Of a stretch of DNA of 64,000 bases, positions 980-20,691 are shown in pieces. The notes beneath the pieces are model-generated. The model saw only the letters and a list, made by a program, of their open reading frames with translations. It made no database searches and was not told where the DNA came from. Numbering within the stretch: position 1 is the first letter of the stretch; each line of letters starts with the position of its first letter. The DNA is from a virus (lineage: Duplodnaviria; Heunggongvirae; Uroviricota; Caudoviricetes): the IMG/VR virus record IMGVR_UViG_3300032322_001781; one strand, given 5' to 3'. The position numbers were made by a program, and so were the translations under genes.

Positions 980-1053
980 TGGCGTGTATCCGTAAAGGCA
1001 TTCGGTCCTCCCTCTTAAGGAGATTTATGTGGGTTCAACTCCCATCACGCCAA
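980..1053 (+). tRNA. tRNA-Lys (anticodon CTT) by manual fold
   Basis: Acceptor tggcgtg/cacgcca, anticodon loop ctCTTaa, T-arm gtggg-ttcaact-cccat; starts with T and 4-bp anticodon stem, so moderate confidence. Confidence 0.6.
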
Positions 1054-1058
1054 CTAAT

Positions 1059-1146
1059 GACTCTGTTCCCGTAGTTGGCCGAACGGTCCAGCCTTTTAAG
1101 CTGATGTGTGCAAACACCACCGTGGGTTCAAATCCCACCAGGGTCA
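1059..1146 (+). tRNA. Type II tRNA (Leu/Ser/Tyr-like architecture, 17-nt variable arm hairpin gtgt-gcaa-acac); anticodon uncertain (my fold gives TTT)
   Basis: Acceptor gactctg/cagggtc, perfect T-arm gtggg-ttcaaat-cccac, long variable arm; anticodon arm ccagc-cttttaa-gctga. Confidence 0.6.
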
Positions 1147-1162
1147 CAAAATTTTATAAAAA

Positions 1163-6058: not shown

Positions 6059-6385
6059 ATGAGTTTAGATAGGAAAAAAGTTGATAAAAAACCGATAAAT
6101 TCAATAGTACCTAAAAAAAGAGAGATTGAAACACATAAAGAGGAGAAAAAACAAAATGATATCGGCTCAAATAACGATGAGTACTCATTATTACCAAAAT
6201 TTATAAAACAAAGTGTTTCTGAAACAAAAAACAGTTTAAAATTTATTAGAATTAGTTTAGATGCTGATATGGAAGAAAGAAAAAAAATTAGCGATAAACT
6301 TTCAAAAAATGAAATAAAACTTCAGTTTTTTGGTGTTGATGGTAATAAATCTTATCATTATTATTTAGAAATTAAAAAAAATTAA
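6059..6385 (+). CDS. hypothetical protein (Lys/Glu-rich)
   Basis: ORF. Confidence 0.4.
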   Translation: MSLDRKKVDKKPINSIVPKKREIETHKEEKKQNDIGSNNDEYSLLPKFIKQSVSETKNSLKFIRISLDADMEERKKISDKLSKNEIKLQFFGVDGNKSYHYYLEIKKN

Positions 6386-6386
6386 C

Positions 6387-6818
6387 ATGATGTTAAAAGA
6401 AAAAATAAACAATGATTTCATGGAGGCTTATAAAGCTAAAAACATGGAAAAGAAAAACTTTTTGGGTGTTCTTAAAGGGGCTATTCAAACACAAGAAGGC
6501 AAGATGATAGAATCTACCGATGAAAACGTTTTAAAAGTTATAAAAGCTTTAGAAAAAGGTTTGATTGAGACGATTGAAAGTAAAAATAGAATAGGTCAAG
6601 ACCCTAGTAAAGTAGAAACTGAATTGTCATACTTACAACCATATTTACCTTCGCTTATGAGTGAAGATGAAATTCGTTATGTTGTAAAAGAATTGTTAAA
6701 TAGAGAAGGTATTAACAAAAACCTAGGGTTTCTTATGGGTATGTTTAACAAAGAACAAAGAGGAAAGTCTTTTGATAACAAAGCCGTTTCAAAAATCATA
6801 AACGAAGAACTAGGATGA
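6387..6818 (+). CDS. GatB/YqeY domain protein
   Basis: Aligns along length with YqeY: N-term LKE.IN.D...A.KAK and C-term LMG...N.....S.D.K.VSK.I.E.L. Confidence 0.65.
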   Translation: MMLKEKINNDFMEAYKAKNMEKKNFLGVLKGAIQTQEGKMIESTDENVLKVIKALEKGLIETIESKNRIGQDPSKVETELSYLQPYLPSLMSEDEIRYVVKELLNREGINKNLGFLMGMFNKEQRGKSFDNKAVSKIINEELG

Positions 6819-7183
6819 GTTTAAGCGTAATTTTTTCAATTATTTTTATCCATTGGTTTTCTGATTTTGTTCTACAAACTCACTGGCAAGCAACGAACAA
6901 AAGCAAGGATAACAAAGCCCTTACTATGCATGTATTATCATATAGTGCTGTATGGTTTTTAACAGCAAATGTATATAGTATAATAACTGGTAATTATTTG
7001 GTTTTGGCTTTATTCACACCAATTACATTTATTTGCCATTGGATTACCGATTATTTTACCAGTAGATTAAATAGTAAATTATGGGCCAAAGGCGACATTC
7101 ATAATTTCTTCGTTAGTGTTGGTTTTGACCAAGTGCTGCATTATTTACAACTTTTCTTAACGTTTTACTTTTTAACAAAATAG
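6815..7183 (+). CDS. hypothetical membrane protein
   Basis: Multiple hydrophobic segments. Confidence 0.45.
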   Translation: MSLSVIFSIIFIHWFSDFVLQTHWQATNKSKDNKALTMHVLSYSAVWFLTANVYSIITGNYLVLALFTPITFICHWITDYFTSRLNSKLWAKGDIHNFFVSVGFDQVLHYLQLFLTFYFLTK

Positions 7184-7190
7184 AGTTTAT

Positions 7191-7781
7191 ATGAATCAAG
7201 AGCAAATTCACGCAAGTTTGGATAATATGCTTGCCAATCCTAAATCTAGAAATTTTTTGAACCACCTTGTTAGGTCTTACATGCCAATTTCAAATGTTGA
7301 AAAAGTTTGGGAAACACCAGAAAAAGATTTTAAATGTGTGATAACAAAAGACCAATTATTTTCGGCTTCTGATATTTTAAAAGGTATCCAAAGTGAAGAA
7401 TTTCAAAATGATTTTATGAATCATTTGAAATCATTATTCTCTGAAGATAAGGCAGAGTCTCCAATTGCTAAATTGATTGGTGAGAAGAAAATGGGTGTTA
7501 CTGGTAAAGACACCACGACTTATATGTCTTACCCAGCTTTTCAAGAGTTCTACAATTGGGTTGTTACCAAATCGCTTAAAGGAGATAAACATATTAACTG
7601 GCTTTTAGGTTCAATTAGACGGGCTTCATTTATAGAAAGAGCTGAGAAGATTGATGATAAGACTGTTCAAAAAAAGGTTGAAAACTTTAAAAAAACAACT
7701 GGTTCATCTTCAACTTATACTTTGGGTGATGCCAGTGATGCACTTTTAAAATTAAAAAATAAATTAGAAAATAAAGAATGA
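7191..7781 (+). CDS. hypothetical protein
   Basis: ORF. Confidence 0.45.
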   Translation: MNQEQIHASLDNMLANPKSRNFLNHLVRSYMPISNVEKVWETPEKDFKCVITKDQLFSASDILKGIQSEEFQNDFMNHLKSLFSEDKAESPIAKLIGEKKMGVTGKDTTTYMSYPAFQEFYNWVVTKSLKGDKHINWLLGSIRRASFIERAEKIDDKTVQKKVENFKKTTGSSSTYTLGDASDALLKLKNKLENKE

Positions 7782-8470
7782 GATTAAATGTAGATTTTAC
7801 ACAAGAAAATCGTAAAAATTTATTTTTCACATCCGACTTTCATTTGTTTCACAAGAATGTGTTGAAATTTGATAACAGACCGTTCTCAGATGTAAATGAA
7901 ATGCACATTGAGATTGAAAAAGGGTGGAATAAGGTTGTTAAACAAAATGATATTGTAATTTACCTAGGTGATTTGAGCTTTGCTAGAAATGAAGACAAAT
8001 CAAGTGTTCAAGCTATGTTAAATAGACTTAACGGTACCATTCATTTTGTTATGGGTAACCATGATAAATTGGACGATATAAAGAAAATGACACGATTCCA
8101 ATCAGTACAGGATTATTTGGAAGTAAGGGTTAAACACGTATTGGACTATAATGAAGTAGAAACATTGTTCTGTTGTATGCATTATCCAATATATTCATGG
8201 AATAAATCACATCATGGAAGTTGGTTAGTTCATGGTCATTGCCATATGAATTTACTTAATGAAGAATCAACATGGTTTTCAGAAATGAATAGTTTTTGTG
8301 ATTTTATTCCGTCAGACCAATTAGAAAAATTTAAATTGTTAATAGCTCAAAAAAATTATTATAATAGACGTGTATTTGATGTTGGTATTATGGGTCATGA
8401 TTATAAACCAGTATCTTATTTAGATATTTTAGCTATGACCAACAGTAAAACATTATCTAAGCATCATTAA
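7778..8470 (+). CDS. calcineurin-like metallophosphoesterase
   Basis: MPP motifs DFHLFH, GDLSF, GNHD, GHCH. Confidence 0.7.
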   Translation: MRLNVDFTQENRKNLFFTSDFHLFHKNVLKFDNRPFSDVNEMHIEIEKGWNKVVKQNDIVIYLGDLSFARNEDKSSVQAMLNRLNGTIHFVMGNHDKLDDIKKMTRFQSVQDYLEVRVKHVLDYNEVETLFCCMHYPIYSWNKSHHGSWLVHGHCHMNLLNEESTWFSEMNSFCDFIPSDQLEKFKLLIAQKNYYNRRVFDVGIMGHDYKPVSYLDILAMTNSKTLSKHH

Positions 8471-8492: not shown

Positions 8493-9782
8493 ATGAGAAA
8501 TAAAATGAGAAATAAAAAAAATATGTTAAGAGCCGAAAAAGCTCTTAGAAGCGTCAATGAAGCTATTGCTGAAGCGGAGCAAATGGGTATACCAGAACTT
8601 ATTGAAATAGATGAGGATGAAGAGTATAATGCTCATTCAAACACGTTTGAGATAAGTTTTATCGAATTTGCTATTATAAATATGTATCTTCATAATTCAT
8701 TTAAGGGTAAATATAATGATGTAATTGTTTCATCTTATGGTCAAGTAGATAGTTCTGGACGATTATCTTTTGGTGGTGTTTTTGAAAATACTGGTTCTTA
8801 TTGGTTTAGTGGTAGATTAAAAGATGTTGATAATGATTTTATTTTTCAAACCAAAATGTATCTTGATTCTAGGAATGAACTAAACATACAATTACATATA
8901 AGTGTTAAAAAAGCAATATCTTATGAATTATTTGATAAGTTTAAAAAAACAATTATGGAAATGGCTTTTAATAACTCTGAATATAAGGGTAAGTGTATTA
9001 AAGTAAAAATGAAAGATGGTCGTTTCAGAGGTATTGAAATCATAGACATCGAACAATCTAGAAATGAACTCATATTAAATGAAGTTCAAAAGAAATTTAT
9101 TGACCATTTTGTTTTTCGTGTTGAAAGAGGTGGAAATGCCAGATATTTGTTGAATGGGGAACCAGGTACTGGAAAGACCGAAAGCATACGTGATATTGCT
9201 CGTAGGCTTATACCTAAAGTAACATTCATAATTCCAGATTTTGACACAAGCGATGACCTTACATCAATTATGGAAGCTTGTGAAATTTTTAAAAATGGTG
9301 TTATTATTATGGATGATATTGACTTGTATTTGGGTTCACGTGACAATGGAAGTTACACCAAACTTTTAGGGCAATTTTTATCATTCTTTGATGGAGTTAA
9401 AAAACGTAAAATTAGTCTTCTAGCATCAACCAATGATAAAGGGTTGGTTGACAAAGCTGCCGAGAGACCAGGTAGATTTAATTTCACTTTGGATTACAAT
9501 TTCTTGGATGTTGAACAAATCGTTAAGGTTTGTAATATTCATTTGCCAGAAAAATGGAGAATTCAAGAAGTGTATAACGCACTTACTGAAAAAATAAATG
9601 GTAAAAAAGTGAACATTACAGGTGCGTTTATAGCAAACTTGGCTGAAAACATTAGAGAAATGTCGGAAGGTGATGATAACTGGTCGGTTGAAGATACAAT
9701 TAGTTTGATTAAAGAATCTTACAAAGGCTTCTATTCTAGCCAAATTGAGAAAGAAAAACAAAATTTAGGTTTTAAACTATAA
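8493..9782 (+). CDS. AAA+ ATPase
   Basis: Walker A GEPGTGKT, Walker B IIMDDID. Confidence 0.7.
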   Translation: MRNKMRNKKNMLRAEKALRSVNEAIAEAEQMGIPELIEIDEDEEYNAHSNTFEISFIEFAIINMYLHNSFKGKYNDVIVSSYGQVDSSGRLSFGGVFENTGSYWFSGRLKDVDNDFIFQTKMYLDSRNELNIQLHISVKKAISYELFDKFKKTIMEMAFNNSEYKGKCIKVKMKDGRFRGIEIIDIEQSRNELILNEVQKKFIDHFVFRVERGGNARYLLNGEPGTGKTESIRDIARRLIPKVTFIIPDFDTSDDLTSIMEACEIFKNGVIIMDDIDLYLGSRDNGSYTKLLGQFLSFFDGVKKRKISLLASTNDKGLVDKAAERPGRFNFTLDYNFLDVEQIVKVCNIHLPEKWRIQEVYNALTEKINGKKVNITGAFIANLAENIREMSEGDDNWSVEDTISLIKESYKGFYSSQIEKEKQNLGFKL

Positions 9783-9786
9783 AAAA

Positions 9787-9818
9787 TTTGGTAAATATAA
9801 AATTTTTTAATACCTTTG
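9787..9818 (+). promoter_or_regulatory. Bacteroidetes-type promoter (-33 TTTG / -7 TACCTTTG), drives nadM-like gene
   Basis: tttggtaa-N-tacctttg, 20-nt spacing. Confidence 0.6.
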
Positions 9819-9834
9819 GGTATAAATAAAAAAC

Positions 9835-10776
9835 ATGAGTAACATATTAAATATTAAACCAGATGTTGACCCATCAACAGCCCAAATTGGGGTGATAATG
9901 GCCCGTTTCCAAGTAGCTCAACTTCACGAAGGTCATAAACAACTTATAGATACTGTATTACACTATCATAAAAAAGTTATAATTTTTCTTGGGGTGTCTA
10001 AAAAATCTTCCGACAAGAATAGTCCTCTTGATTTTGCTAATAGAAGGGCTATGATTCATGAATCGTATCCAAACGTTATCGTGCTTCCTCAATTGGATGT
10101 GCGTGATGACCACAAATGGTCTGCAAATTTAGATGCACAGATTTCATTACCGTTTGGTGAGTTATCTGCTGTGATTTATGGTAGTAGAGATTCGTTTATT
10201 CCACACTACCATGGCAAATACAAGGTTATTGAAGTTTTGCCTAAAACACCAGTTAACGGAACTTCAGAAAGATTGGCTATAGCTAGAGAAGTTATCCCTA
10301 GTGTTGATTTTAGAAAAGGTGTTATTTACCAAACATTTACACAACGCCCAGTAACCTATCCAACTGTTGATGTGGTTGCTTACAATGACAATGGTCAAAT
10401 CCTTTTGGCTAAAAAACCCAACGAAATTCTTTATCGTTTTGTTGGTGGTTTTGTTGACCGTACTGATGAATCTTGGGAATCTGCCGCTAAACGTGAGTTC
10501 ATGGAAGAAAGTGGTGGATGCGAGATAGGTGATTTGAAATACGTTGCTAGTGCTAAAATCAACGATTGGAGATATGCCAAATCAGAATCTGGTATCATGA
10601 CAACATTGTTCTTGGGTAAATTCATGTGGGGCAATGCAAAACCATCAGATGACATTGCAGTTTTAGATTGGTTGAACCCAGAAGATATCAACCCAGAAAA
10701 AGACATCATGTTGGAACACCGTGAACTCTTCATCAAATTGATTGAGTTTATGAAAGCACAAAAGTTGATAAAATGA
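9835..10776 (+). CDS. nadM: bifunctional NMN adenylyltransferase / Nudix ADP-ribose pyrophosphatase (NadM-like)
   Basis: N-terminal nucleotidyltransferase H-x-G-H motif (LHEGH); C-terminal Nudix box GGFVDRTDESWESAAKREFMEESG. Confidence 0.8.
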   Translation: MSNILNIKPDVDPSTAQIGVIMARFQVAQLHEGHKQLIDTVLHYHKKVIIFLGVSKKSSDKNSPLDFANRRAMIHESYPNVIVLPQLDVRDDHKWSANLDAQISLPFGELSAVIYGSRDSFIPHYHGKYKVIEVLPKTPVNGTSERLAIAREVIPSVDFRKGVIYQTFTQRPVTYPTVDVVAYNDNGQILLAKKPNEILYRFVGGFVDRTDESWESAAKREFMEESGGCEIGDLKYVASAKINDWRYAKSESGIMTTLFLGKFMWGNAKPSDDIAVLDWLNPEDINPEKDIMLEHRELFIKLIEFMKAQKLIK

Positions 10777-10882
10777 AAGTAGCTGTAATAGGTAGTGGCA
10801 TTTTGGGACCAAAATAGTAGCGGTACGAAAGACTCAATTAAAAAAGCTGATAAGGCTGGTAAAAAAATATTGATAATTACAT

Positions 10883-10913
10883 TTTGATAATTCAAATATT
10901 ATTCGTACCTTTG
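10883..10913 (+). promoter_or_regulatory. Bacteroidetes-type promoter upstream of NAMPT
   Basis: TTTG ... TACCTTTG. Confidence 0.55.
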
Positions 10914-10943
10914 CACAAATAACAACAATTAAAAAATAAATAT

Positions 10944-12566
10944 ATGCAATCCGCAAGTCGTTTTTTAAAAAGAAAGCTAGGTCTTAAATCAGTGATTAAA
11001 GACCGCTTGGCTGAAGCCATCAAGAATCGTGATTGGGCTTCCATCGAAAATTTACAAGACCTTATTGCTAAGGCTTTGGATAAACCGTATAACCTTGTAC
11101 TTATGGGTGATGCTTACAAGTATTCACATCATAAGTTTTATGAGGACAATACTACCAAGGTTTATTCTTACATGGAGTCACGTGGTGGAAAATTCAGTGA
11201 AACCGTAGTTTACGGTATTCAAATGTTCATCAAAGAATTTATCGAAGGTGTTGCAATCACTCAAGAAGAGTTGGATGAAGCATACGAATACTTAGGTACA
11301 AAATTGGGTGTGTTCGGACGTGAAGACGTATTCGACAAATCCAAATTCCAATACATAATTGACGTTCACGGTGGCCGTCTTCCAGTTCTTATCAAAGCTG
11401 TTCCAGAAGGAACCGTTGTTGGTGTAAAGAACGTATTGGTAACTATTGAAAACACCGACCCTAATTGCTACTGGTTGACCAACTTCCTTGAAACTATCAT
11501 GATGCAAGTTTGGTATCCTATTACCGTAGCTACCTTATCTCACGAAGTTAAAAAAATTGTTCGTGAGTACTTCCAAAAAACATCAGACCTTCCAGAAAAT
11601 ATCATGGACACGGTTATTGAGTTCGTATTGAACGACTTTGGTTTCCGTGGTGTGTCTTCCGTACAATCGGCTGGTATCGGTGGCTCTGCTCACCTTGTAA
11701 ACTTCTTGGGTTCTGATACAACTTATGCTTCAAAACGTATCTGTGAATACTACAACTCTGACCGAGTATTTGGTTTGAGCGTACCAGCGACTGAACACTC
11801 TATCATGACAATGAGAGGTGAAGCTGGTGAAGTTGAAATGATGAGACGTACACTTGAAAAATATCCTACTGGTATTGTTGCTTGTGTATCTGACTCTTAC
11901 CACATCCTTCGTGCTTGTTCACAATATTGGGGAACTGAATTGCGTGACCTTATCTTGAGTCGCCCAGCAGAACCAGGTAACCAGTTGGTTATTCGCCCAG
12001 ACTCTGGCCACGTTGTGAATACACTTAAAGCTGTATTTGAAATCTTGTTTGACAAGTTTGGTTACACAACCAACTCAAAAGGATTCAAAGTATTACCTCC
12101 ACAAGTCCGTGTTATCCAAGGTGATGGTGTAAACATCGGTTCTATTGGTGAAATCTATGAAGAACTTTACAAGCTAGGTATTTCTGCTGAGAACATCGTG
12201 TTTGGTATGGGTGGAAAGTTGTTACAAGCTGACATCAACCGTGACACACAAAACTTCGCAACCAAAGCGTGTTTTGCAGTTGTTGATGGTGTTGAGCGTG
12301 ACCTTGTAAAATCACCAACAGAAGTTGATGAAAATGGTGACTTGAAACCTTCATTCAAGAAATCAAAACAAGGTCGTTTGAAACTTGTTAAGAATGAAGA
12401 TGGAACTTACCGCACTGTAACATCACGTGATGCTGACTTTGATAGCGTTAATGATGAATTGGTTCCAATATTCCAAGATGGTGAAATACTTGTAGAATAC
12501 ACATTCGAAGAAATCAGAGAAAGAGTTCAAGCTACTTTCAAAAAACAAGAATTGGAGGTTGCGTAA
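10944..12566 (+). CDS. nadV: nicotinamide phosphoribosyltransferase (NAMPT/NadV)
   Basis: Strong NAMPT-family similarity (DAYKYSHHKFY.., VVYGIQMFIKEF, GSDTTY motifs); about 48-aa N-terminal extension relative to canonical NAMPT. Confidence 0.85.
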   Translation: MQSASRFLKRKLGLKSVIKDRLAEAIKNRDWASIENLQDLIAKALDKPYNLVLMGDAYKYSHHKFYEDNTTKVYSYMESRGGKFSETVVYGIQMFIKEFIEGVAITQEELDEAYEYLGTKLGVFGREDVFDKSKFQYIIDVHGGRLPVLIKAVPEGTVVGVKNVLVTIENTDPNCYWLTNFLETIMMQVWYPITVATLSHEVKKIVREYFQKTSDLPENIMDTVIEFVLNDFGFRGVSSVQSAGIGGSAHLVNFLGSDTTYASKRICEYYNSDRVFGLSVPATEHSIMTMRGEAGEVEMMRRTLEKYPTGIVACVSDSYHILRACSQYWGTELRDLILSRPAEPGNQLVIRPDSGHVVNTLKAVFEILFDKFGYTTNSKGFKVLPPQVRVIQGDGVNIGSIGEIYEELYKLGISAENIVFGMGGKLLQADINRDTQNFATKACFAVVDGVERDLVKSPTEVDENGDLKPSFKKSKQGRLKLVKNEDGTYRTVTSRDADFDSVNDELVPIFQDGEILVEYTFEEIRERVQATFKKQELEVA

Positions 12567-13054
12567 TGGTTAAGAATAACATGGTCTTATTTTGGGGAGG
12601 AACATTCTCTCAGTGGTTCCCATCTGATTTCATCATAGATGGAATCAAATACGTAACAGCAGAACAATATATGATGGCTAGAAAAGCCAAACTTTTTGGT
12701 GATAATGATGCTTATCGTGAAATCATGAAATCAAAAGACCCAGCTTATCAAAAACGAATTGGCCGTCAAGTAAAAGGATTTGAAAAAAATGAATGGGAAT
12801 CTATTTGTCGTCAAATTGTTTATGATGGAAACTACGCTAAATTCAGTCAAAATCCAAGTATGAAAGCTGAATTAATGGCTACTGGTGAGTTGGAAATTGT
12901 AGAGGCTAGTCCATATGATAAAATTTGGGGTATTGGTCTTCACGAAACAGACCCACGTGCTTGGGATAAAGCAACGTGGTTAGGAACCAACTGGCTTGGA
13001 ATTGAAATTATGAAAGTAAGAAAAAAACTTAGAGAAGATGACGCAAATTCATAG
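12566..13054 (+). CDS. NADAR (YbiA/DUF1768) domain protein
   Basis: FWGGTFSQWFP...YVTAEQYMMARKA...SPYDKIWGIG matches YbiA-like N-glycosidase/NADAR family. Confidence 0.75.
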   Translation: MVKNNMVLFWGGTFSQWFPSDFIIDGIKYVTAEQYMMARKAKLFGDNDAYREIMKSKDPAYQKRIGRQVKGFEKNEWESICRQIVYDGNYAKFSQNPSMKAELMATGELEIVEASPYDKIWGIGLHETDPRAWDKATWLGTNWLGIEIMKVRKKLREDDANS

Positions 13055-13141
13055 ATACGAAGAAAGTGTAAGTGCATTTGTTTAAAGATGAATTTTTAGA
13101 CAAATTAAAACAAATAACAAATTTTTTAAAACTTAAATAAG

Positions 13142-13597
13142 ATGATTAAATATGTAGATGGTGATTTACTCAAACTTGCCGATGAGGGTTATTTCGATGT
13201 AATTGCGCACGGAGCGAATTGTTTTTGCAATATGGGTGCTGGTATAGCTCCACAAATTAAAGCTAAATATCCAGAAGCTTATAAAGTTGATTGTGAAACT
13301 ATTGTTGGTGATATAAATAAGTTAGGAACGATAACTTATACTAAAAATACAACACCTATTGTTGTTAATATTTATTCTCAGTTCGACACAAAAGGTCGAA
13401 GACAGGGTAAAATTGATTTAGACTATGAAGCTTTACGTTCTGGTATCAAAGCTATGAAAGAAAAATTTTCTGGTAAACGATTTGGACTCCCATACATAGG
13501 AACGGGTTTGGCGGGAGGCAATGAAGCTAAGGTTATAGCTATAATAGAGGAAGAAATGAGAGGTGAGTACGTAACTATGGTTAGATACGTACCATAA
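13142..13597 (+). CDS. macrodomain protein (ADP-ribose binding / ADP-ribosyl hydrolase)
   Basis: Macro motifs DVIAHGANCFCNMGAGIAPQI and GLPYIGTGLAGG. Confidence 0.75.
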   Translation: MIKYVDGDLLKLADEGYFDVIAHGANCFCNMGAGIAPQIKAKYPEAYKVDCETIVGDINKLGTITYTKNTTPIVVNIYSQFDTKGRRQGKIDLDYEALRSGIKAMKEKFSGKRFGLPYIGTGLAGGNEAKVIAIIEEEMRGEYVTMVRYVP

Positions 13598-13618
13598 TTC
13601 TTTAAAAAAGTATTAAAT

Positions 13619-13804
13619 ATGTCTAAACAAACGATTACAATTGGCGTTGCCAATGAAAAAGAAAAAAACATAGATGTTGAAGAATTAAAAACATGGGTAC
13701 CTAAAAATATTAGTTATTTTAGCGATACTGTTTATTTTAAACAGGATAAAGTTTATTATTCGATGAAAAGATTGGATTTTGATAAAATATTTCCTAAAAA
13801 ATGA
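13619..13804 (+). CDS. hypothetical small protein
   Basis: ORF. Confidence 0.3.
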   Translation: MSKQTITIGVANEKEKNIDVEELKTWVPKNISYFSDTVYFKQDKVYYSMKRLDFDKIFPKK

Positions 13805-14238
13805 GTGTAGTTAAAGCAATAGAAAAATTTTACCAAGATAAAGAAAAACGTGGTTGGGAAAAAGGGTTTTTTTTCTTTGATATTCATGGGACTATTCTTA
13901 AGCCAAATTATGAGTATGGTAATACACCAAAAGAATTCTATCCATATGCTAAAGAAGTTCTGCAACTTTTTAGTAAACGAAAAGATGTTTGTATGATACT
14001 TTATACTTGCTCACACCCAGATGAAATTGAAGAATATCTTAAACTTTTTGAGAATAATAACATAAAATTTGATTATGTAAATGAGAATCCAGAAGTTGTA
14101 ACTGATGTAAATGGTTATGGTTGTTACGATAAAAAACCATATATGAATGTCTTATTTGAAGATAAAGCTGGTTTTTATGGTGAAGAAGATTGGTTACCAG
14201 TTTTAAAGCTTTTAAAAGAAAAATACCCAGACGTGTAA
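13801..14238 (+). CDS. hypothetical protein
   Basis: ORF. Confidence 0.45.
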   Translation: MSVVKAIEKFYQDKEKRGWEKGFFFFDIHGTILKPNYEYGNTPKEFYPYAKEVLQLFSKRKDVCMILYTCSHPDEIEEYLKLFENNNIKFDYVNENPEVVTDVNGYGCYDKKPYMNVLFEDKAGFYGEEDWLPVLKLLKEKYPDV

Positions 14239-14318
14239 ATATAATTTGTCTTTTTTATTTATTAAACTTCTTGTTTTATTGAAAAATAACTAGTACTTTT
14301 GTGTAAATTAATTACATT

Positions 14319-14606
14319 ATGAAAAAACTAAACACAATTTTTGCCTTAGTCATATTAACATTTTTACTATATGGTTGTTTTCCACGTGAAATTCATTCTA
14401 ACAATACAAATGAGTTACCAGGTTTTTGGTTGGGTACGTGGCATGGTATGATAAGTGGTTTTTCATTTATAGGTAGCTTATTCGATGATTCGATTAAAGT
14501 TTATGCAATAAATAATAATGGACATTGGTATGATTTTGGTTTTGTTGGTGGGTTATTTTTTATTTTTAGAATATTTTTTAGTATGATAAATAGTAAAAAA
14601 GATTAA
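14319..14606 (+). CDS. hypothetical membrane protein
   Basis: N-terminal TM/signal, second hydrophobic segment. Confidence 0.4.
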   Translation: MKKLNTIFALVILTFLLYGCFPREIHSNNTNELPGFWLGTWHGMISGFSFIGSLFDDSIKVYAINNNGHWYDFGFVGGLFFIFRIFFSMINSKKD

Positions 14607-14607
14607 T

Positions 14608-14907
14608 ATGAGTTATAGGCCGCTACCAAGTTATTTAACGATAAAACCATCTATATTAGATGGTCTTGGGTTATTTGCAACCGATGATATTGATGAGAAT
14701 CATGTTCTTGGTATATCACATGTTTTTCATTCCAATTTTCAAGATGGGTATATCAGAACTCCTTTAGGTGGATTTTTTAATCATTCTGATTCACCTAATT
14801 GCAAAATAGTTGATAAGGGAGCTTATCTAATATTGCAGACGATAAGAAAAATAAATGCTGGTGAAGAAATAACAGCTTATTACACATTATATAAACTAGA
14901 AAAATGA
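14608..14907 (+). CDS. SET domain protein (putative lysine methyltransferase)
   Basis: GLGLFA, NHSDSPNC (NHSCxPN-like) and EEITAYY (post-SET-like) motifs. Confidence 0.65.
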   Translation: MSYRPLPSYLTIKPSILDGLGLFATDDIDENHVLGISHVFHSNFQDGYIRTPLGGFFNHSDSPNCKIVDKGAYLILQTIRKINAGEEITAYYTLYKLEK

Positions 14908-15269
14908 GCGTAATTAAATTTGAATTAAAAAAAGAACACGTGCTTTTGCTGAAAAATTTACGTTGGAGCGTAAACAGTCGGGGTATTATTAGTGGTGTTG
15001 CTGATGAAGGTGATGAAATAGCGCCTCCATTTGGTGAAACAAACATATATGATGCTATTAGTCTGATATTAAATGGAAAACCAGAAAATGTTGATTTGTT
15101 AACACATGATGAATTTTTTATTTACACAGATGAACAAAAAGCTGAATGGGATAAATTATATTCTGAGTTGCCAACAGCTCTAGAGATTATTCTTAGTAAT
15201 AATAGTTTTGATACTGGTATTTATAAAACAAAATATCATTTACGAGACTGGAAAAAAATTAATTCATAA
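14904..15269 (+). CDS. hypothetical protein
   Basis: ORF. Confidence 0.45.
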   Translation: MSVIKFELKKEHVLLLKNLRWSVNSRGIISGVADEGDEIAPPFGETNIYDAISLILNGKPENVDLLTHDEFFIYTDEQKAEWDKLYSELPTALEIILSNNSFDTGIYKTKYHLRDWKKINS

Positions 15270-15449
15270 AAATGAATAAGATAAAGTTTTTATCACTATT
15301 TTTTCTTATATTAATAGTGTTTGTCTCTATTAAAATTTTTTTAATATCCTTATCTATAATTTTTACTTTTTTAAAAATTGTAATTTTTAGTTTTTTAATA
15401 ACATGTGTTTTGTTTTTAATTATTTATTTTAAAAATAAGTTTAAATAAT

Positions 15450-15481
15450 TTTGTTAGTTATATATTTTTTTAATACCTTTG
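15450..15481 (+). promoter_or_regulatory. Bacteroidetes-type promoter
   Basis: TTTG ... TACCTTTG. Confidence 0.55.
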
Positions 15482-15496
15482 TAAAAATTCTATTAC

Positions 15497-15688
15497 ATGA
15501 CCTATAAAAAATCTTATGCGATTGTTAAAACCTTTAAAGAAAAGGGTAAAATAAAATCTATTTTATTAGTTGACACACATTCTGAAATATGGGAATTTGA
15601 TGATTTTAATGAAGCACAAGCAATTGCTGATGTTTTAACAAAAAATTCTGATTCTGGTTGGATGTATTTTGTAAGGTCTATTAATTAA
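15497..15688 (+). CDS. hypothetical small protein
   Basis: ORF. Confidence 0.35.
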   Translation: MTYKKSYAIVKTFKEKGKIKSILLVDTHSEIWEFDDFNEAQAIADVLTKNSDSGWMYFVRSIN

Positions 15689-15699
15689 AAATAACAATC

Positions 15700-16656
15700 A
15701 TGGAATCTATAATTTTTTCATTAGATGGTAGAGTAGATTTGATGAACTCTATTTTAGAACATTATAATAAAATTTCAGAAAACAAAAACACTATTATAGG
15801 TGAATTCAACCATCAAAAATTTTCAGATGGTGAATTATGTGGTGATTATAGCGTATCTGTAAGAGGTAAAAGAGTTTATCTTTTATCAAGTGCTAATGAT
15901 AGTGACAAAATTATTAGTCTAATTTTAGCAATTGATGCTGCAAAAAGGGCTGCTGCGTCCGAAATCATTCCAATACTCCCATATTTTCCTTATGCTAGAC
16001 AGGATAAAAAGGACCAAGTTAGAGGCCCTATTGGAGCTAAAGTTATTGCAAGTATGTTAGAAAATGCTGGTGCAACATCCATAATCACATTTGACTTACA
16101 CGCAGACCAAATTCAAGGTTTTTTTGATATTCCTCTTACGCACATAGAAGGTAAAAACGTTTTCGATGATTACATATATTCAATTTCTAACGAAAATACT
16201 GTTTTGTGTGGACCAGACGCTGGCTCTGGCAAGAGAGTTAAAAGAATGAAAGACCAATTATTAAATCATTATGGTTTAGATTTAAATTATGTTATGATGG
16301 ATAAAACCAGAAAAGTTGCTAATGAGGTTGATAAAATGGTTATAATTGGAGATGTTCAAGATAAAGATGTGATAATTTTGGATGATATGGTTGACACAGC
16401 TGGGACTTTATGTAAAGCTGCTAGTGTGATTATAGAAAACGGGGCTAAAAGTGTTATGGCTATAATTAGTCATGGTGTTTTATCTGGGAATGCTTATAAA
16501 AATATTAATTCTTCAGTTTTAAAAGAATTGGTAATAAGTGATTCACTACTTAAAAAAGATTTACCTAATAATATTATAACAATAAGTATTGATTTTCAAA
16601 TAGCGAAAACTATCGCTTCAATAAACAATAATTTAAGTTATGAATTAATAAAATGA
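15700..16656 (+). CDS. prs: ribose-phosphate pyrophosphokinase (PRPP synthetase) family protein
   Basis: Prs architecture: DGE..G.....VRGK.VYLL.S N-domain and PRTase-type C-domain (VIILDDMVDTAGTL). Confidence 0.8.
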   Translation: MESIIFSLDGRVDLMNSILEHYNKISENKNTIIGEFNHQKFSDGELCGDYSVSVRGKRVYLLSSANDSDKIISLILAIDAAKRAAASEIIPILPYFPYARQDKKDQVRGPIGAKVIASMLENAGATSIITFDLHADQIQGFFDIPLTHIEGKNVFDDYIYSISNENTVLCGPDAGSGKRVKRMKDQLLNHYGLDLNYVMMDKTRKVANEVDKMVIIGDVQDKDVIILDDMVDTAGTLCKAASVIIENGAKSVMAIISHGVLSGNAYKNINSSVLKELVISDSLLKKDLPNNIITISIDFQIAKTIASINNNLSYELIK

Positions 16657-16788
16657 GTGAAGAACAAATAAAACAGTTTGGGATTTTATGTTTACGAATA
16701 ATCCTAGCATTAGCCGCTTTTATTTTGGCATATAATAAAATAGAAGGATGGGGTTGGATATTAGTAATTTTATTTTTAACAATGTAAT

Positions 16789-17589
16789 ATGAGTAAAGAT
16801 TTAAATGTAAGAATGAAAGCTTACGAAGCTTGTTATGATTTCAAAGTTCCTTCTAGAACATATGTTATTATAAGGCTTGATGGGAAAAATTTTAGCAAAT
16901 ATACGAAAATGTTTAATAAACCATTTGATGATAATTTATCAAATGTTATGGATATTGCAACTATTGAACTTTGTAAATTATTTAACCCTAAATTTGCTTA
17001 TACGCAATCTGATGAAATTAGTTTGTTACTTACAGATATTGAAAATATTGAGTCTGAGCTTATTTTTGATGGGTCTGTTCAAAAACTTTGCAGTATATCA
17101 TCTTCAAAAGTAACAGCAGCTTTTAATAAAGCTATGTTGAAAACATTAGCCAGTACCAAATATAATCAAGAAAAATTATTTGAAAAAATTTTATCTGGTG
17201 ATTTCGCTGAAATTGATGCTGTATTTGATTCTCGTGTTTATATAATACCAGATTTTCGTGAAGTTTCAAATTATTTTATTTGGAGACAACAAGATTGCAC
17301 ACGTAACAGTATAAGTATGGCGGCTAGTGCTAATTTTAGTTCAAAAAAACTTGAAAAAAAATCTGGTAGTGAAAAACAAGAAATGCTTTTTATAGAAAAG
17401 GGTATTAACTGGAATGATTATTTAAGCAAATACAAAAGAGGTGTTGTAATAAAAAAAGAAAATGTTTTCGTTCAAGGTAAAAATGGCGATGTGGTTCAGA
17501 GGTCTAAATGGCTTCCAGATTATGAGACACCTATTTTTACTCAAGAAAAAGAGTATCTATATAATTTAATTCCAACTATATCTCTATAG
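16789..17589 (+). CDS. Thg1-like protein (tRNA-His guanylyltransferase / 3'-5' nucleotide polymerase family)
   Basis: Thg1 motifs: VIIRLDGKNFSKY (cf. RIDGRNFHKF), YTQSDEISLLL (cf. GQSDEYSF), IWRQQDC (cf. SWRQADC). Confidence 0.75.
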   Translation: MSKDLNVRMKAYEACYDFKVPSRTYVIIRLDGKNFSKYTKMFNKPFDDNLSNVMDIATIELCKLFNPKFAYTQSDEISLLLTDIENIESELIFDGSVQKLCSISSSKVTAAFNKAMLKTLASTKYNQEKLFEKILSGDFAEIDAVFDSRVYIIPDFREVSNYFIWRQQDCTRNSISMAASANFSSKKLEKKSGSEKQEMLFIEKGINWNDYLSKYKRGVVIKKENVFVQGKNGDVVQRSKWLPDYETPIFTQEKEYLYNLIPTISL

Positions 17590-17664: not shown

Positions 17665-19266
17665 ATGAGATTCAAAGAATTAACAAATGAAATAATTGAA
17701 AAAGCTAAGTCCATATATGTTGATAAAACGTTATCATGGGACGAAAGAATGAAATTACTTACAGAATTATTTGGACGTTCAGAACGTACTGTTCGTAGAT
17801 GGTGTAGTGAAAAACTTTCTTTTAAAGAAAAAGTTGATGTTGAACCTGAACAATATATAAAAGCCAAACAAAAACAAATTAATTTAGAGAAAAATAGATT
17901 TATTATTACTTGGGCTCAAAATAACACTCCAATTAATGTTAAATTTTTAAAAAATATTGAGGCGTATGCTGAACATATAAATGCGGATATTCATGTCATA
18001 GCTGGTAGATATAAAAATCCAACTAGTATTTGGACAAATGAACAAGAAAATGAAGAATTCTGGGATTCAAGAATTTTAAAATATTTGGATGCTAATAGAC
18101 ATGATGTGCATAAATTCTTATCAATCTTGTCAGATATCAAGATTCAACCAACAGCTGTTAATCCAATGGTTGGTATGCAAGCATTAAGTGGTATTAATTC
18201 TTGTGTTTTTGGTAGTCCAAAAGTTCAATTGGAAATGATTCCAGTTTTGGAAAATAACGTACCTAAAATGATGTTAACTACTGGTGCGATAACATTACAA
18301 AATTATACTGATTCTAAGTCTGGTAAAGTTGGGGCGTTTCATCACACATTTGGTTTTGCTATTGTTGAGATTAGTGATGAAAATGTTTTTCATGTTAGAC
18401 AAGTAACGGCTGATGATAAATCAGGTAATTTTTCTGATTTATTTTATAGGGTTGAAAATGGGAATGTAACTGAATTAAATAAAATAGAAGCTATTATATT
18501 GGGTGATTTACATTGTGGTCATCACGATGAAAATGTTTTGAAAGCTACGTTTAAATTAACTAGTAAGTTATCACCTACACACGTTGTGTTACATGATGTA
18601 TTCGATGGTGATTCTATAAGTCATCATCAGATGAAAGACCCATTTGTTCAATATGGAAAAGAAGTACAAGGAACCAATGATTTGGGTAAAGAAATTGATA
18701 ACATGATGGGTGTTTTAGATAATTTTATACATTTTGAAAACGTTGTTATCGTTCGTTCAAATCACGATGATTTTGTTGATAGATGGTTAAAAAATGAAGA
18801 TTGGAAGAAACAACCAACATTTAAAAACGCACCATTATATATGGAGTTAAGTGCCAGATTATTAAAACAATATGGTAAAGGTAATGAACATGTAATTGGT
18901 GTAATCCCAGAACTAATTAAAGAGCGTTTTCCTAAGTATATTACTTTAGATAGAAGTGCTTCTTATAAGGTAAAGGGTGGTTGGGAATTAGGACAACATG
19001 GTGATATTTCAGCTAATGGGTCTAGAGGGTCGTTGATTAATTTTAGAAAATTAAACACCAAAATCATAGTCGGTCACTATCATACGCCTGGACGAAAAGA
19101 CGGAGCTCTTTCAGTTGGAACCACTACAAAATTAAGAGTTGGCTATAATTTAGGCCCGTCATCATGGTTACAAAGTCACGTAATAATACATAATGACGGA
19201 CGTGCCCAGCACATTAATTTCATTCATGATAAAAATGGAATAGCTAATTTTACAACATTTATTTAA
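17665..19266 (+). CDS. large protein with C-terminal metallophosphoesterase domain
   Basis: GDLHCGHHD, SNHDDF, GQHGD, GHYHTPG motifs in C-terminal half. Confidence 0.5.
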   Translation: MRFKELTNEIIEKAKSIYVDKTLSWDERMKLLTELFGRSERTVRRWCSEKLSFKEKVDVEPEQYIKAKQKQINLEKNRFIITWAQNNTPINVKFLKNIEAYAEHINADIHVIAGRYKNPTSIWTNEQENEEFWDSRILKYLDANRHDVHKFLSILSDIKIQPTAVNPMVGMQALSGINSCVFGSPKVQLEMIPVLENNVPKMMLTTGAITLQNYTDSKSGKVGAFHHTFGFAIVEISDENVFHVRQVTADDKSGNFSDLFYRVENGNVTELNKIEAIILGDLHCGHHDENVLKATFKLTSKLSPTHVVLHDVFDGDSISHHQMKDPFVQYGKEVQGTNDLGKEIDNMMGVLDNFIHFENVVIVRSNHDDFVDRWLKNEDWKKQPTFKNAPLYMELSARLLKQYGKGNEHVIGVIPELIKERFPKYITLDRSASYKVKGGWELGQHGDISANGSRGSLINFRKLNTKIIVGHYHTPGRKDGALSVGTTTKLRVGYNLGPSSWLQSHVIIHNDGRAQHINFIHDKNGIANFTTFI

Positions 19267-19274
19267 TGTGAAAG

Positions 19275-19306
19275 TTTGTAAAATAAAAAAATATTTAGTA
19301 CCTTTG
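19275..19306 (+). promoter_or_regulatory. Bacteroidetes-type promoter
   Basis: TTTG ... TACCTTTG. Confidence 0.55.
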
Positions 19307-19353
19307 CAAACATGGGAAAGAAATTGAACGAGTTTTAGGTATAAAAAGAAGTA

Positions 19354-19908
19354 GTGTTAGTCAATGTGTTAAAGGTGGTATTAAAACCTCTGGTGGGTTT
19401 ATATGGAAATATAATAAAAATAAAGATTATGAGTAATTTAAAAAAAGAAAGTATCACAATCAATTGTGATTTTGACGGAACTGTTGTAACACATGACTAC
19501 CCAGAAGTTGGGAGGGATATAGGTGCTGTACCTGTTTTAAAAAGACTTGTGGCTGAAGGGCATCAATTAATCTTGTTCACTATGAGAAGTGATAAGGAAT
19601 TTGTTGAAAGAGATGGAAGTGTTACTACTCGTGGTCTTAAAGATGCGATTGATTGGTTTGTAAAGAATGATATTCCATTATATGGGGTACAAACAAATCC
19701 AACTCAACACACTTGGACTAATTCACCTAAAAGTTATGCACAATTAATGATTGACGATTCATCAATTTTTGCCCCATTAATTTTTGATGAAACTATTTCT
19801 AATAGACCATTTATTAATTGGGTTGAAGTTGAAAAAATATTAGAGGTTCGAGGAATATTAACACAAAAAACAAAAGAAAATGGAGAACAAGCAACAAATA
19901 ACGTTTGA
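19354..19908 (+). CDS. HAD-superfamily hydrolase (5'(3')-deoxyribonucleotidase-like)
   Basis: HAD motif I DFDGTVV near N-terminus. Confidence 0.5.
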   Translation: MLVNVLKVVLKPLVGLYGNIIKIKIMSNLKKESITINCDFDGTVVTHDYPEVGRDIGAVPVLKRLVAEGHQLILFTMRSDKEFVERDGSVTTRGLKDAIDWFVKNDIPLYGVQTNPTQHTWTNSPKSYAQLMIDDSSIFAPLIFDETISNRPFINWVEVEKILEVRGILTQKTKENGEQATNNV

Positions 19909-20224
19909 TGAATTCTTAGCTATTGAAGCTAAGTTAGAAATAAAGATTGGGCTTATAACTATGGCTGAAACCGTACCAAAAAGCTATGGTCTTAAATTGA
20001 CTGTTGATTTTGGTAATGGTGATTTACGCACCGTTTTCACCAATATAGGTAAAACACATTTACCAGAACAATTGATTGGTCTTACAATGCCTTTTATCAC
20101 CAACCTTGAACCAAGTGTTATCAAAGGTGTGAATAGTCAAGCTATGATTATGGTTGGTACTGGGACTGAAGGTCAGTTACAAGTTGGGTTAGATTTCATT
20201 GGAGTAGGTACTAGATTAATGTGA
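19880..20224 (+). CDS. tRNA-binding domain protein (Trbp111/CsaA/EMAP-II-like OB fold)
   Basis: FDEFLAIEAKLEIKIGLI...LKLTVDFG...RTV resembles Myf/tRNA-binding domain (F..LDLRVG.I). Confidence 0.6.
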   Translation: MENKQQITFDEFLAIEAKLEIKIGLITMAETVPKSYGLKLTVDFGNGDLRTVFTNIGKTHLPEQLIGLTMPFITNLEPSVIKGVNSQAMIMVGTGTEGQLQVGLDFIGVGTRLM

Positions 20225-20691
20225 TGAAAACAATAGCGGCTGGTTTATTTTTGGTTAATAAAGATGGTAAGTTATTAGTTTGCCACCCTACAAACCATAA
20301 ACCTGATTTTTGGAGTATCCCGAAAGGAAAAGTAGATGTTGGTGAGAATATTATAGACGCTGCCATACGTGAAACTTATGAGGAGACAAATTTAATTGTT
20401 CCTAAAGACTGTAATTTTATTGAATTACCAATGGTAAATTATAAACATGGAAAAAAAGCTATTCATGGTTTTTTAGTTTTAGAAGAACAAAACATGTCGT
20501 TAAATTTAATGGATGTGGTATTAAAATGTAATTCATTTGTGCCATTAGAAATGGGTGGGTTCCCAGAAATGGATAATTATAAATGGGTTGATTTGGATGA
20601 AGCTAAACCAATTCTACACGAAACTCAAGCACAATCAATAGATATTATAAAAAATATCATCAAAGATATTAAAAACACTTCTTTAATTTAG
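20221..20691 (+). CDS. Nudix hydrolase
   Basis: Nudix box GKVDVGENIIDAAIRETYEETNL. Confidence 0.75.
   Translation: MMKTIAAGLFLVNKDGKLLVCHPTNHKPDFWSIPKGKVDVGENIIDAAIRETYEETNLIVPKDCNFIELPMVNYKHGKKAIHGFLVLEEQNMSLNLMDVVLKCNSFVPLEMGGFPEMDNYKWVDLDEAKPILHETQAQSIDIIKNIIKDIKNTSLI

Follow-up and report, generated by a model that had tools for sequence, protein, structure and literature searches.

Depletion of NAD+ is among the commonest strategies used by bacteria against phages, and the pathways by which phages rebuild it (NARP1, NARP1-AP, NARP2 and NARP3) are under active study. NARP2 of Vibrio phage KVP40, which consists of the Nampt enzyme NadV and the Nmnat/Nudix protein NatV, is costly, consumes phosphoribosyl pyrophosphate (PRPP) and makes an excess of NAD+ also in cells that lack a defence system (Osterman et al. 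2024, bioRxiv 10.1101/2024.02.11.579819), and it counters type I Thoeris, DSR, SIR2-HerA and aRES (bioRxiv 10.1101/2024.02.11.579819; 10.64898/2026.01.28.702374). In NARP1-AP of Vibrio phage Gary and relatives, Adps and Namat are accompanied by Adpp, a macro-domain phosphatase that dephosphorylates ADP-ribose (ADPR)-1P (Osterman et al. 2026, bioRxiv 10.64898/2026.01.28.702374). A gene block in a 64,000-nucleotide stretch of the Caudoviricetes virus record IMGVR_UViG_3300032322_001781 (the whole stretch is referred to below as the window) was examined here, and the 13 open reading frames (ORFs) found between positions 9835 and 16656 all lie on the + strand. The sequence of this block suggests that it is probably an extended NARP2-type NAD+ reconstitution island, in which ADPR would be fed back via Nudix, ribose-5-P, Prs and PRPP. 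A first-pass annotation made from the sequence had named a NadM-like NMNAT/Nudix protein, NAMPT, NADAR, macro and SET proteins and Prs, and each of these was recovered by profile searches where it had been placed. The genes on which the comparison with known systems depends are as follows.

9835–10776, + strand: divergent NadM-like bifunctional protein (313 amino acids, aa) with a predicted N-terminal nicotinamide mononucleotide (NMN) adenylyltransferase (LHEGH, GTSER) and C-terminal Nudix hydrolase (REFMEESG box)
10944–12566, + strand: NAMPT, predicted nicotinamide phosphoribosyltransferase of the Nampt/NadV type (540 aa; NAPRTase 142 bits and NAMPT_N 90 bits)
12566–13054, + strand: predicted NADAR N-glycosidase of the YbiA/Glu type, a variable accessory gene (162 aa; start overlaps the NAMPT stop; PF08719 170 bits)
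13142–13597, + strand: macro-domain protein of an Adpp/Poa1p-related phage family, phrog_335 (151 aa; PF01661 26.5 bits, cut-off 22; phrog_335 162 bits)
13619–13804, + strand: 61-aa protein (stop overlaps the start of the HAD-fold gene; in 18 of the 58 lineages defined below, always ~0.2 kb before the HAD-fold gene)
13801–14238, + strand: 145-aa capless HAD-fold protein (invariant D27-x-H29-x-T31, S71, K112 and D121)
15700–16656, + strand: Prs, predicted canonical class I ribose-phosphate pyrophosphokinase, a variable accessory gene (318 aa; Pribosyltran_N 105, Pribosyl_synth 57 and Pribosyltran 48 bits)

The NadM-like protein matched NUDIX (PF00293) at 43 bits (E 5e-11), and its N-terminus scored 19.3 bits against CTP_transf_like (PF01467), under the cut-off of 21. 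A profile of 29 aligned homologues (profile A1), drawn from 1,289 NadM-like proteins collected, was compared with the PDB and matched FtNadM (2qjt, E 5e-15) and slr0787 of Synechocystis (2qjo, E 6e-10) with both domains collinear, followed by archaeal NMNATs, and the HxGH, SxTxxR and REx2EE motifs were invariant across the 29 homologues. As profile A1 matches both solved NMNAT/ADPR-pyrophosphatases in order and these motifs are invariant, the first protein of the block is classed from its sequence as a divergent NadM-type enzyme that has the same architecture and is not a close orthologue. The Nudix domain of NadM is reportedly an ADPR pyrophosphatase, as is said to have been found by Huang et al. 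in 2008 and as the names of PDB entries 2qjo and 2qjt have it. No match between the NadM-like protein and KVP40 NatV was obtained by tblastn at E 1e-5, and only 5 records of the NadM-like clade were found in GenBank phages, namely four 'huge phages' and Tunturiibacter phage Tunturi_5.

The NAMPT scored 535 bits against NCBIfam PRK09198 (cut-off 405) and 391–405 bits against Nampt structures, compared with 231 bits against the 9w5w/9ke8 group. It shares 41% identity with KVP40 NadV (305 bits) and 28% with the Namat of Vibrio phage Cilsick (148 bits), and the catalytic motifs DFGFRG, ATEHS, RPDSG and IQGDG are readable in its sequence. The selectivity clamp of Namat has the motif GSxΦxΦxΦTRD (PMC12774641), and at this position Cilsick Namat has GSFTYQYVTRD whereas the window protein carries GGKLLQADINRD. 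The bit scores, the identities and the replacement of the clamp rule out that the protein is a Namat, and it is assigned by homology to the PRPP-using Nampt clade.

Prs scored 311 bits against NCBIfam NF002320 (class I Prs, cut-off 297), 219 bits against human PRPS1 and 202 bits against Escherichia coli Prs, aligning through residues 310–313 of 318, and the Pribosyl_synth match spans residues 207–313. The alignment with PRPS1 shows PYARQDKK, HADQIQGFF, KTRKVANEVDKM and DDMVDTAGT, with the K-x-R flexible loop and the C-terminal module kept. The defining features of Adps are a missing C-terminal alpha11-alpha12 module and a PP loop that has been remodelled (PMC13586617), and Cilsick Adps, which has DDISDGGAS where Prs has DDMVDTAGT, is 25% identical to the window protein. 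The possibility that Prs is really an Adps, making the island NARP1 or a NARP1/NARP2 hybrid, is ruled out by the intact C-terminal module, the DDMVDTAGT motif and the score of 57 bits to Adps, and its sequence identifies the protein as a canonical class I PRPP synthetase. Canonical Prs is rare in phages, as coverage of the query reached 80% or more in ~40 of 710 matching records, mainly from huge phages, and some of these ~40 are probable bacterial contamination. In huge phages of the same NadM clade, the NadM and NAMPT genes are adjacent and a canonical Prs is encoded elsewhere in the genome.

At the level of sequence, the island thus has the Nampt-clade enzyme and Nmnat homologue that characterize NARP2 and lacks the Adps and Namat that characterize NARP1. 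As neither Adps nor Namat is present, recycling of ADPR would need Nudix and Prs rather than direct pyrophosphorylation. The first-pass annotation had proposed a complete route from nicotinamide to NAD+, and the genes for it are encoded, with NAMPT, NMNAT (with Nudix) and Prs predicted to lead from nicotinamide and ribose-5-P via PRPP and NMN to NAD+. Its suggestion that NAMPT and NMNAT act together as a phage counter-defence corresponds to the published NARP2 (bioRxiv 10.1101/2024.02.11.579819).

The conservation of the block was examined in 80 loci fetched with profile A1, which formed 58 clusters at 90% NadM identity (here called lineages), 41 of them with full flanks. Presence of each gene within 10 kb was counted, except for a tRNA_bind column, which was treated as an artefact and not used as its iterative hidden Markov model (HMM) also caught NADAR ORFs in related loci.

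NAMPT just downstream of the NadM-like gene, same strand: 55 of 58 lineages, 39 of 41 with full flanks
145-aa HAD-fold gene: 39 of 58, 31 of 41
Prs: 23 of 58, 18 of 41
121-aa gene: 23 of 58, 18 of 41
Macro: 19 of 58, 17 of 41
NADAR: 13 of 58, 12 of 41
SET: 4 of 58, 3 of 41

In 14 close relatives from IMG/VR (NAMPT 64–99% identical), the order AAA ATPase, NadM-like, NAMPT, (NADAR), (macro), 61-aa, HAD-fold and, further on, 121-aa and Prs genes is kept. As the same order recurs in these relatives and across the 58 lineages of the NadM clade, the arrangement is not due to chance. Compact cassettes of NadM, NAMPT, Prs and HAD-fold genes were found in distant relatives (L075, L076 and L084), and in L079, L085 and L091 the macro gene is part of the locus in a different arrangement.

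The block had been described in the first-pass annotation as tight, and this part of the description does not stand, as at least three promoter-like sites lie inside it, its content is modular, and NADAR and Prs are cleanly deleted in strains 97–99% identical to the window. The NADAR deletion (window 12653–13107) is present in strains L100–L102 and the Prs deletion (window 15774–16720) in L100, and in sister strains a gene for a 111-aa YAcAr protein (SLOG, PF10686) is inserted between the NadM-like gene and NAMPT (10777–10943). The NadM-like gene and NAMPT form a fixed core, and the accessory slots are exchangeable between strains. Other blocks lacking in the comparison with L100, L101 and L102 are 6385–7744 and 19229–20658.

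Both the NADAR and the macro assignments, on which the first-pass annotation had staked its reading, are borne out by HMM matches (170 bits, and 26.5 bits against the cut-off of 22, respectively). Over 151 aa, the macro protein shares 37% identity (E 2e-28) with Cilsick gp173, encoded between Adps and Namat in an Adps-macro-Namat operon; gp173 is taken as an Adpp orthologue from this operon position, the experimentally tested Adpp being that of Vibrio phage Gary. In the window, the macro gene lies two genes after the Nampt-type gene in a NARP2-type cluster, and not within two genes of an Adps-Namat pair. The family profile matched BT1257 (85 bits), DarG (77), TARG1 (70), SCO6735 (67) and Poa1p (48) in the PDB, and the best single-sequence match was Poa1p. 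As several macro classes are matched, fold class alone does not settle the function of the protein. However, in the profile alignment Gln80 (YSQ80FD) occupies the position of the catalytic Lys of Thermus aquaticus DarG (K80, PTK80KHW) and TARG1 (K84, ITKKRA), and Adpp also has Gln there (YGQYH). N26 (HGANCF), which aligns with the NxxG Asn of DarG (N22), is invariant in the family.

Because of the 37% identity to the Adpp-type gp173 and Gln80 in place of the catalytic Lys, the sequence makes it more likely that the macro protein is an ADPR-1''-phosphate phosphatase (Adpp-like) than a DarG/AdfM-type DNA hydrolase. Lack of the Lys makes de-ADP-ribosylation of DNA, as by DarG and AdfM, a less likely role but still a possible one, because enzymes of the SCO6735 type also act without it. 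Relative L052 carries two macro genes 0.7 kb apart (18098–18556 and 19288–19728), one Adpp-like with Gln and the other DarG/AdfM-like with the catalytic Lys motif FPTKDHW (PF01661 68 bits), and as this second macro is Lys-bearing and DarG-like, the two types are distinct. Macro homologues with N-terminal extensions were also seen, with a Lar-type zinc ribbon (PF14354) in L091 (4492–5157) and a 70-aa extension in L060 (14555–15226), L069, L072 and L073.

The NADAR domain begins at residue 12 of 162 and is bare, with no N-terminal extension. Its closest structures are P. nicotianae NADAR (8BAU) and E. coli YbiA, and the Glu of its VEAS motif lies in EIVEASPYDKIWGIG, which aligns with RLYEASRHDAIWGIG of 8BAU and KLVEHTENDAYWGDG of YbiA. 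The match to TIGR02464 is 155 bits (cut-off 73.7). NADARs are divided into Glu (YbiA), Asp (BC4488, DarT1-linked) and His (T4 gp30.3) types, and every NADAR and YbiA tested so far hydrolysed guanine-ADPr in vitro (PMC11125620). The window NADAR is 36% identical over residues 2–145 to bas60_0111, the AdfN of phage PaulScherrer (Bas60), with VEASPYD common to both; AdfN neutralizes DarT1 and rescues phages from DarTG1 (PMC11825919). No ADP-ribosyltransferase (ART) gene adjacent to NADAR was detected in the island gene calls or by domain scan, and its sequence assigns the protein to the YbiA/Glu type and not to the DarT1-associated, BC4488-type antitoxins. The NADAR and macro genes are often start/stop-coupled in relatives, and in L072 (15686–16702) NADAR is fused to a nucleoside 2-deoxyribosyltransferase (NDT)-like domain. 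The erasure of ADP-ribose marks foreseen in the first-pass annotation therefore has a precedent for NADAR in the AdfN of Bas60, but the macro protein, an Adpp homologue with Gln at the position of the catalytic Lys, fits it less well.

The 61-aa and HAD-fold pair, conserved accessory genes that the first-pass annotation had missed, includes the most conserved accessory partner of the core, the HAD-fold gene. The homologue searches returned 1,194 HAD-fold proteins, against 1,289 for the NadM-like protein, on contigs of up to ~377 kb. The HAD-fold protein gave no usable match to the PDB by sequence, profile included, and was placed by fold search only, a fold that gives no substrate.

From the homologies, motifs and linkage described above, we infer the following steps. 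NAMPT would convert nicotinamide and PRPP to NMN and the N-terminal domain of the NadM-like protein would adenylylate NMN to NAD+, as their homology and conserved adjacency suggest, so that the core would restore NAD+ cleaved by SIR2, TIR, SEFIR or RES effectors. The phage Prs would make PRPP from ribose-5-P, and as PRPP would then come from the phage's own enzyme, NAMPT would leave the PRPP supply of nucleotide synthesis untouched. The Nudix domain would split ADPR into AMP and ribose-5-P, allowing the second fragment of cleaved NAD+ to re-enter through Prs, and the Adpp-like macro protein would bring ADPR-1''-phosphate, the product of RES-type NAD+ cleavage, into the same loop as ADPR. Less certainly, NADAR would most plausibly release ADPR from guanine-ADP-ribosylated DNA, as with AdfN, a separate function of the anti-DarT1 type that would also yield ADPR. 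The 61-aa and HAD-fold pair, again with less certainty, would add a step, probably the dephosphorylation of an intermediate that is a ribose phosphate or a nucleotide, and the SET gene, the membrane ORFs and possibly the 121-aa gene would be passengers.

The remaining ORFs and the promoter-like sites of the block are as follows.

9787–9818, + strand: promoter-like site P1 (TTTG, 20 nucleotides, TACCTTTG), 17 nucleotides before the start codon of the NadM-like gene
10883–10913, + strand: promoter-like site P2, before NAMPT
14294–14301, + strand: weaker promoter-like variant TACTTTTG, before the 95-aa gene (sequence read directly)
14319–14606, + strand: predicted membrane protein of 95 aa (phrog_30702; 14 of 58 lineages)
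14608–14907, + strand: 99-aa minimal SET-domain protein, putative methyltransferase (PF00856 43 bits)
14904–15269, + strand: 121-aa conserved protein, usually just upstream of Prs
15272–15448, + strand: 58-aa hydrophobic ORF, a doubtful gene with no homologues in related loci
15450–15481, + strand: promoter-like site P3, before the 63-aa gene and Prs
15497–15688, + strand: 63-aa protein, directly before Prs

The SET gene was indeed found within the block, where the first-pass annotation had it, but it is a sporadic passenger (4 of 58 lineages) and its gene context suggests no target. The 95-aa membrane protein is probably also a passenger. A confident fold was predicted for the 121-aa protein (predicted local distance difference test, pLDDT, 81), with no structural neighbour in the fold search.

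With 23 sites in the window, TACCTTTG is well above the expected 3.05. The + strand carries 21 of the sites, which lie 12–70 nucleotides before start codons, and 20 of these 21 have TTTG ~20 nucleotides upstream (N19-20). Such TTTG-N19-20-TACCTTTG sites are spread through the window (e.g. 1378, 5591, 9811, 10906, 15474, 19299, 22114, 25811, 32948 and on to 61826), and at least three, perhaps four, promoter-like sites are inside the block; the start coordinate of the first-pass annotation, 9787, is the -33 TTTG of P1. The over-represented motif fits the Bacteroidota sigma-A -33/-7 promoter consensus, and the host is therefore probably a member of the Bacteroidota. A sigma-70 family factor with regions 1.2, 2 and 4 is encoded by the phage itself (window 30158–31054) and could also read the motif. 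That the NadM-like gene, NAMPT and the 63-aa/Prs unit are preceded by a single type of site is compatible with their co-expression. A generic scan for sigma-70 promoters and terminators gave no excess over shuffled sequences.

The window is AT-rich (G+C ~30%) and coding is almost wholly on the + strand. The island DNA gave no match by megablast to 50,697 phage records, and relatives were reached via proteins only; they are IMG/VR contigs of up to 362 kb. One metagenome contig (L099) is 100% identical to window 3801–24238, and the 145-aa HAD-fold protein was found unaltered on a 306-kb contig. The source is a very large (jumbo) phage, probably of freshwater Bacteroidota. A tyrosine recombinase (Phage_integrase, 130 bits) and a GmrSD_N-domain protein are encoded at 35672–36472 and 38836–39783, in a phage that otherwise looks like a lytic jumbo phage. 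Using PADLOC, just weak similarities to DarG and IetA and the NADAR-type candidate family PDC-M42C were obtained.

Genes for translation and RNA functions are dense in the window (62–1147, 2580–3704, 6387–6818, 16789–17589, 19880–20224, 21555–22061, 23021–25039 and 29699–30145) and include five tRNAs, a MnmA-like tRNA 2-thiouridylase (labelled QueC-like by PHROGs), YqeY, Thg1, a tRNA-binding protein, full-length IF3, RNase II/R and SmpB; no tmRNA was detected in the window by ARAGORN. A 186-aa 2H phosphoesterase (3773–4333; 35.7 bits to Acb1, anti-CBASS, PF23474, and 45.7 bits to 2_5_RNA_ligase2), encoded ~5.5 kb upstream of the island, may act in degradation of cyclic-nucleotide signals or in RNA repair. 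A metallophosphatase gene (7778–8470, -2.0 kb) and an AAA ATPase gene (8493–9782, -1.4 kb), the latter with weak similarity to IteA/IetA and FtsH, precede the NadM-like gene in ~21–27 of 58 lineages, and in Bas60 the NADAR gene likewise lies two genes after that for an FtsH-like protein. Three more calcineurin-like metallophosphoesterases are encoded at 17665–19266, 27362–28018 and 28205–28933, and conservation downstream of Prs is seen for the 533-aa one of these three, which is phrog_1745 ('DNA transfer protein', 487 bits). Also 3.5–4 kb after Prs are genes for a second, stand-alone Nudix protein (20221–20691, 64.5 bits) and a nucleoside 2-deoxyribosyltransferase-like protein (20896–21363; PF15891, 127 bits).

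Several observations weigh against an extended NARP2-type island with feedback of ADPR. The best score of the NadM-like protein against an NCBIfam NadM equivalog is 36 bits where the cut-off is 449, and its Nudix box has a one-residue insertion (G-x6-E), leaving ADPR a presumed substrate. The macro profile is at least as near to DarG and TARG1 as to Poa1p, and members of the family are carried by phages very often (2,721 records, including T4 Tk.4). NARP2 alone already cancels aRES, and Adpp is therefore not required for restoration of NAD+ (bioRxiv 10.64898/2026.01.28.702374). The HAD-fold protein has His for the second Asp of motif I (D-x-H-x-T versus DxDx(T/V)), so that even phosphatase chemistry is uncertain for it. 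As the promoter-like motif is found throughout the window and the phage has its own sigma factor, a shared promoter type does not single out the island. NADAR, Prs and the macro gene can each be dispensed with in near-identical strains, all three are absent from many lineages, and this pattern of gain and loss fits independent accessory genes as well as it does one pathway.

Independent accessory genes are what the first alternative supposes, namely that the locus is a hot spot in a variable early-gene region where a NARP2 core, NADAR and macro erasers acting separately (anti-DarTG1 and anti-DarTG2-like) and a Prs of general metabolism have gathered. This is a possible reading, though on balance an unlikely one. 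It would account for the single gains and losses of NADAR and Prs among strains 97–99% identical, the SLOG insertion and the presence of NADAR in merely 13 of 58 lineages, and other counter-defence-like genes, e.g. the Acb1-like 2H phosphoesterase, are nearby. AdfN (NADAR) and AdfM (macro) are proven anti-DarT factors, and the similarity of the window NADAR to Bas60 AdfN, VEASPYD included, is in keeping with such a role; however, the window NADAR is without the N-terminal DNA-binding extension of DarT1-linked NADARs. The macro protein fits less well, being closest to Adpp with Gln at the position of DarG K80 and TARG1 K84, whereas the second macro of L052 is truly DarG-like with Lys. Such a gathering is also at odds with the re-linking of the macro gene to NadM-NAMPT in differing orders (L079, L085, L091) and with the presence of Prs in compact NadM-NAMPT-HAD cassettes (L075, L076, L084).

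A stronger form of the feedback reading, which we put forward tentatively and think rather doubtful when all its parts are taken together, is that the island encodes a self-contained 'long-loop' NAD+ pathway, a NARP2 with the economy of NARP1 that rebuilds both halves of NAD+ whatever the chemistry of the NADase. The 61-aa protein and the D-x-H HAD-fold protein would then trim, e.g., ribose-1,5-bisphosphate or another phosphorylated ADPR fragment, and different ADPR conjugates or signals would be turned into substrates of the loop by NADAR, SLOG and NDT-like N-glycosidases, each able to stand in for another at its entrance.

The block could instead be an auxiliary metabolic module that supplies NAD+ and PRPP for phage replication and NAD+-consuming enzymes in a nutrient-poor host, as in the original interpretation of KVP40 NadV/NatV. 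Housekeeping-type genes abound in the window (IF3, SmpB, MnmA-like, Thg1, RNase II/R, tRNAs, the Nuc_deoxyri_tr2 protein), all of nucleotide synthesis is served by a canonical class I Prs that appears to be regulated, the prs-nadV operons of bacteria are salvage modules of an ordinary kind (PMC2330246), and NARP2 overproduces NAD+ in cells with no defence system (bioRxiv 10.1101/2024.02.11.579819). The anti-defence activity of NARP2 is nevertheless demonstrated, and the strain-level variation of NADAR, Prs and SLOG and the ADPR-processing company are typical of conflict loci, making it unlikely that metabolism is the explanation, although it and counter-defence are not mutually exclusive.

It is very unlikely that the macro protein, perhaps with NADAR and the 2H phosphoesterase, serves RNA repair in the manner of yeast Poa1p in tRNA splicing, clearing the ADP-ribose 1''-2'' cyclic phosphate and ADPR-1''P left by a 2'-phosphotransferase of the Tpt1/KptA type. 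Poa1p is the closest characterized cellular relative named for Adpp as well as the best single-sequence PDB match, a 2H-family protein, Thg1, a tRNA-binding protein, an RNA-repair HAD (HAD_SAK_1) and tRNAs are encoded in the window, and phage systems of this kind are proposed in PMC9503650. However, neither KptA/Tpt1 nor RNA ligase was found among the ~55 window ORFs scanned, and across lineages the macro gene is tied to NAMPT and not to RNA genes. The same scan, which left out small ORFs and the rest of the genome, detected no ART or sirtuin. That NADAR is not an ADP-ribosyl hydrolase, and is instead a YbiA-type N-glycosidase of riboflavin intermediates or an N-ribosyl-5'-phosphate hydrolase giving ribose-5-P for Prs, is highly improbable, as its TIGR02464 score, bare YbiA-like domain with the family Glu and fusion to an NDT-like N-glycosidase domain in L072 are set against the absence of riboflavin genes among the ~55 window ORFs scanned, the hydrolysis of guanine-ADPr in vitro by all NADARs and YbiA tested (PMC11125620) and the neutralization of DarT1 by its nearest tested phage homologue, Bas60 AdfN (PMC11825919).

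The island suggests that NARP2 is not a bare two-gene pathway in a large group of uncultured jumbo phages, and that Prs, an Adpp-like macro protein, a new HAD-fold protein and swappable N-glycosidases are its recurrent feeders. If the accessory genes are independent, the locus is a well-documented NARP2 in a new phage group and no more. Ready-made comparisons are provided by natural strains in which NADAR or Prs is the sole difference.

Among the closest described systems is NARP2 of KVP40 (bioRxiv 10.1101/2024.02.11.579819), which has in common with the island a Nampt-type enzyme and a bifunctional NMNAT/Nudix protein, predicted to make NAD+ from nicotinamide, PRPP and ATP. The NMNAT/Nudix protein of the island is from a separate, divergent clade and the two genes are adjacent in its lineage, and the island adds a canonical Prs, an Adpp-like macro protein, NADAR and the HAD-fold protein. 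NARP1-AP (bioRxiv 10.64898/2026.01.28.702374) shares a homologous macro protein and the trimming of ADPR derivatives beside the rebuilding of NAD+, but the partner pathway in the island is of the NARP2 type, with Prs rather than Adps and NAMPT rather than Namat. The orphan NADARs known as AdfN (Johannesman et al. 2025, PMC11825919) are likewise stand-alone and carry VEASPYD, whereas the window NADAR gene overlaps the NAMPT stop, no DarT context is known for the host, and its activity is a predicted one.

Among bacteria, the prs-nadV and nadM-nadV operons that NrtR regulates by sensing ADPR (Rodionov et al. 2008, PMC2330246) also link a dedicated Prs to NadV, with Cytophaga hutchinsonii as an example from the Bacteroidota, and it was proposed there that ADPR cleaved by Nudix supplies ribose phosphate (Rib-P) for PRPP; some bacterial 'prs-nadV' pairs may be NARP1 homologues (PMC12774641). 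The phage island differs in having no NrtR, in combining Prs, NadV and NadM in one block and in the addition of macro, NADAR and HAD-fold genes. NADAR in phage neighbourhoods with NadM and NadV was described by Iyer, Burroughs, Anantharaman and Aravind in 2022 (PMC9503650), the accessible portion of which makes no mention of Prs, a HAD-fold partner, an Adpp-type macro identity or strain-level gain and loss. The linkages are therefore less novel than the first-pass annotation implied, as NADAR beside NadM/NadV dates from 2022, macro with NARP1 from 2026, and prs-nadV with the flow from ADPR via Rib-P to PRPP from 2008. In the literature searched, the association of NARP2 with both an Adpp-type macro protein and a canonical Prs, the conserved D-x-H HAD pair, the size of the NadM clade in uncultured jumbo phages and the strain-level turnover of NADAR, Prs and SLOG genes appear to be new. 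Each linkage having a published precedent, the island is an elaboration of NARP2, a known counter-defence, and not a new kind of system.

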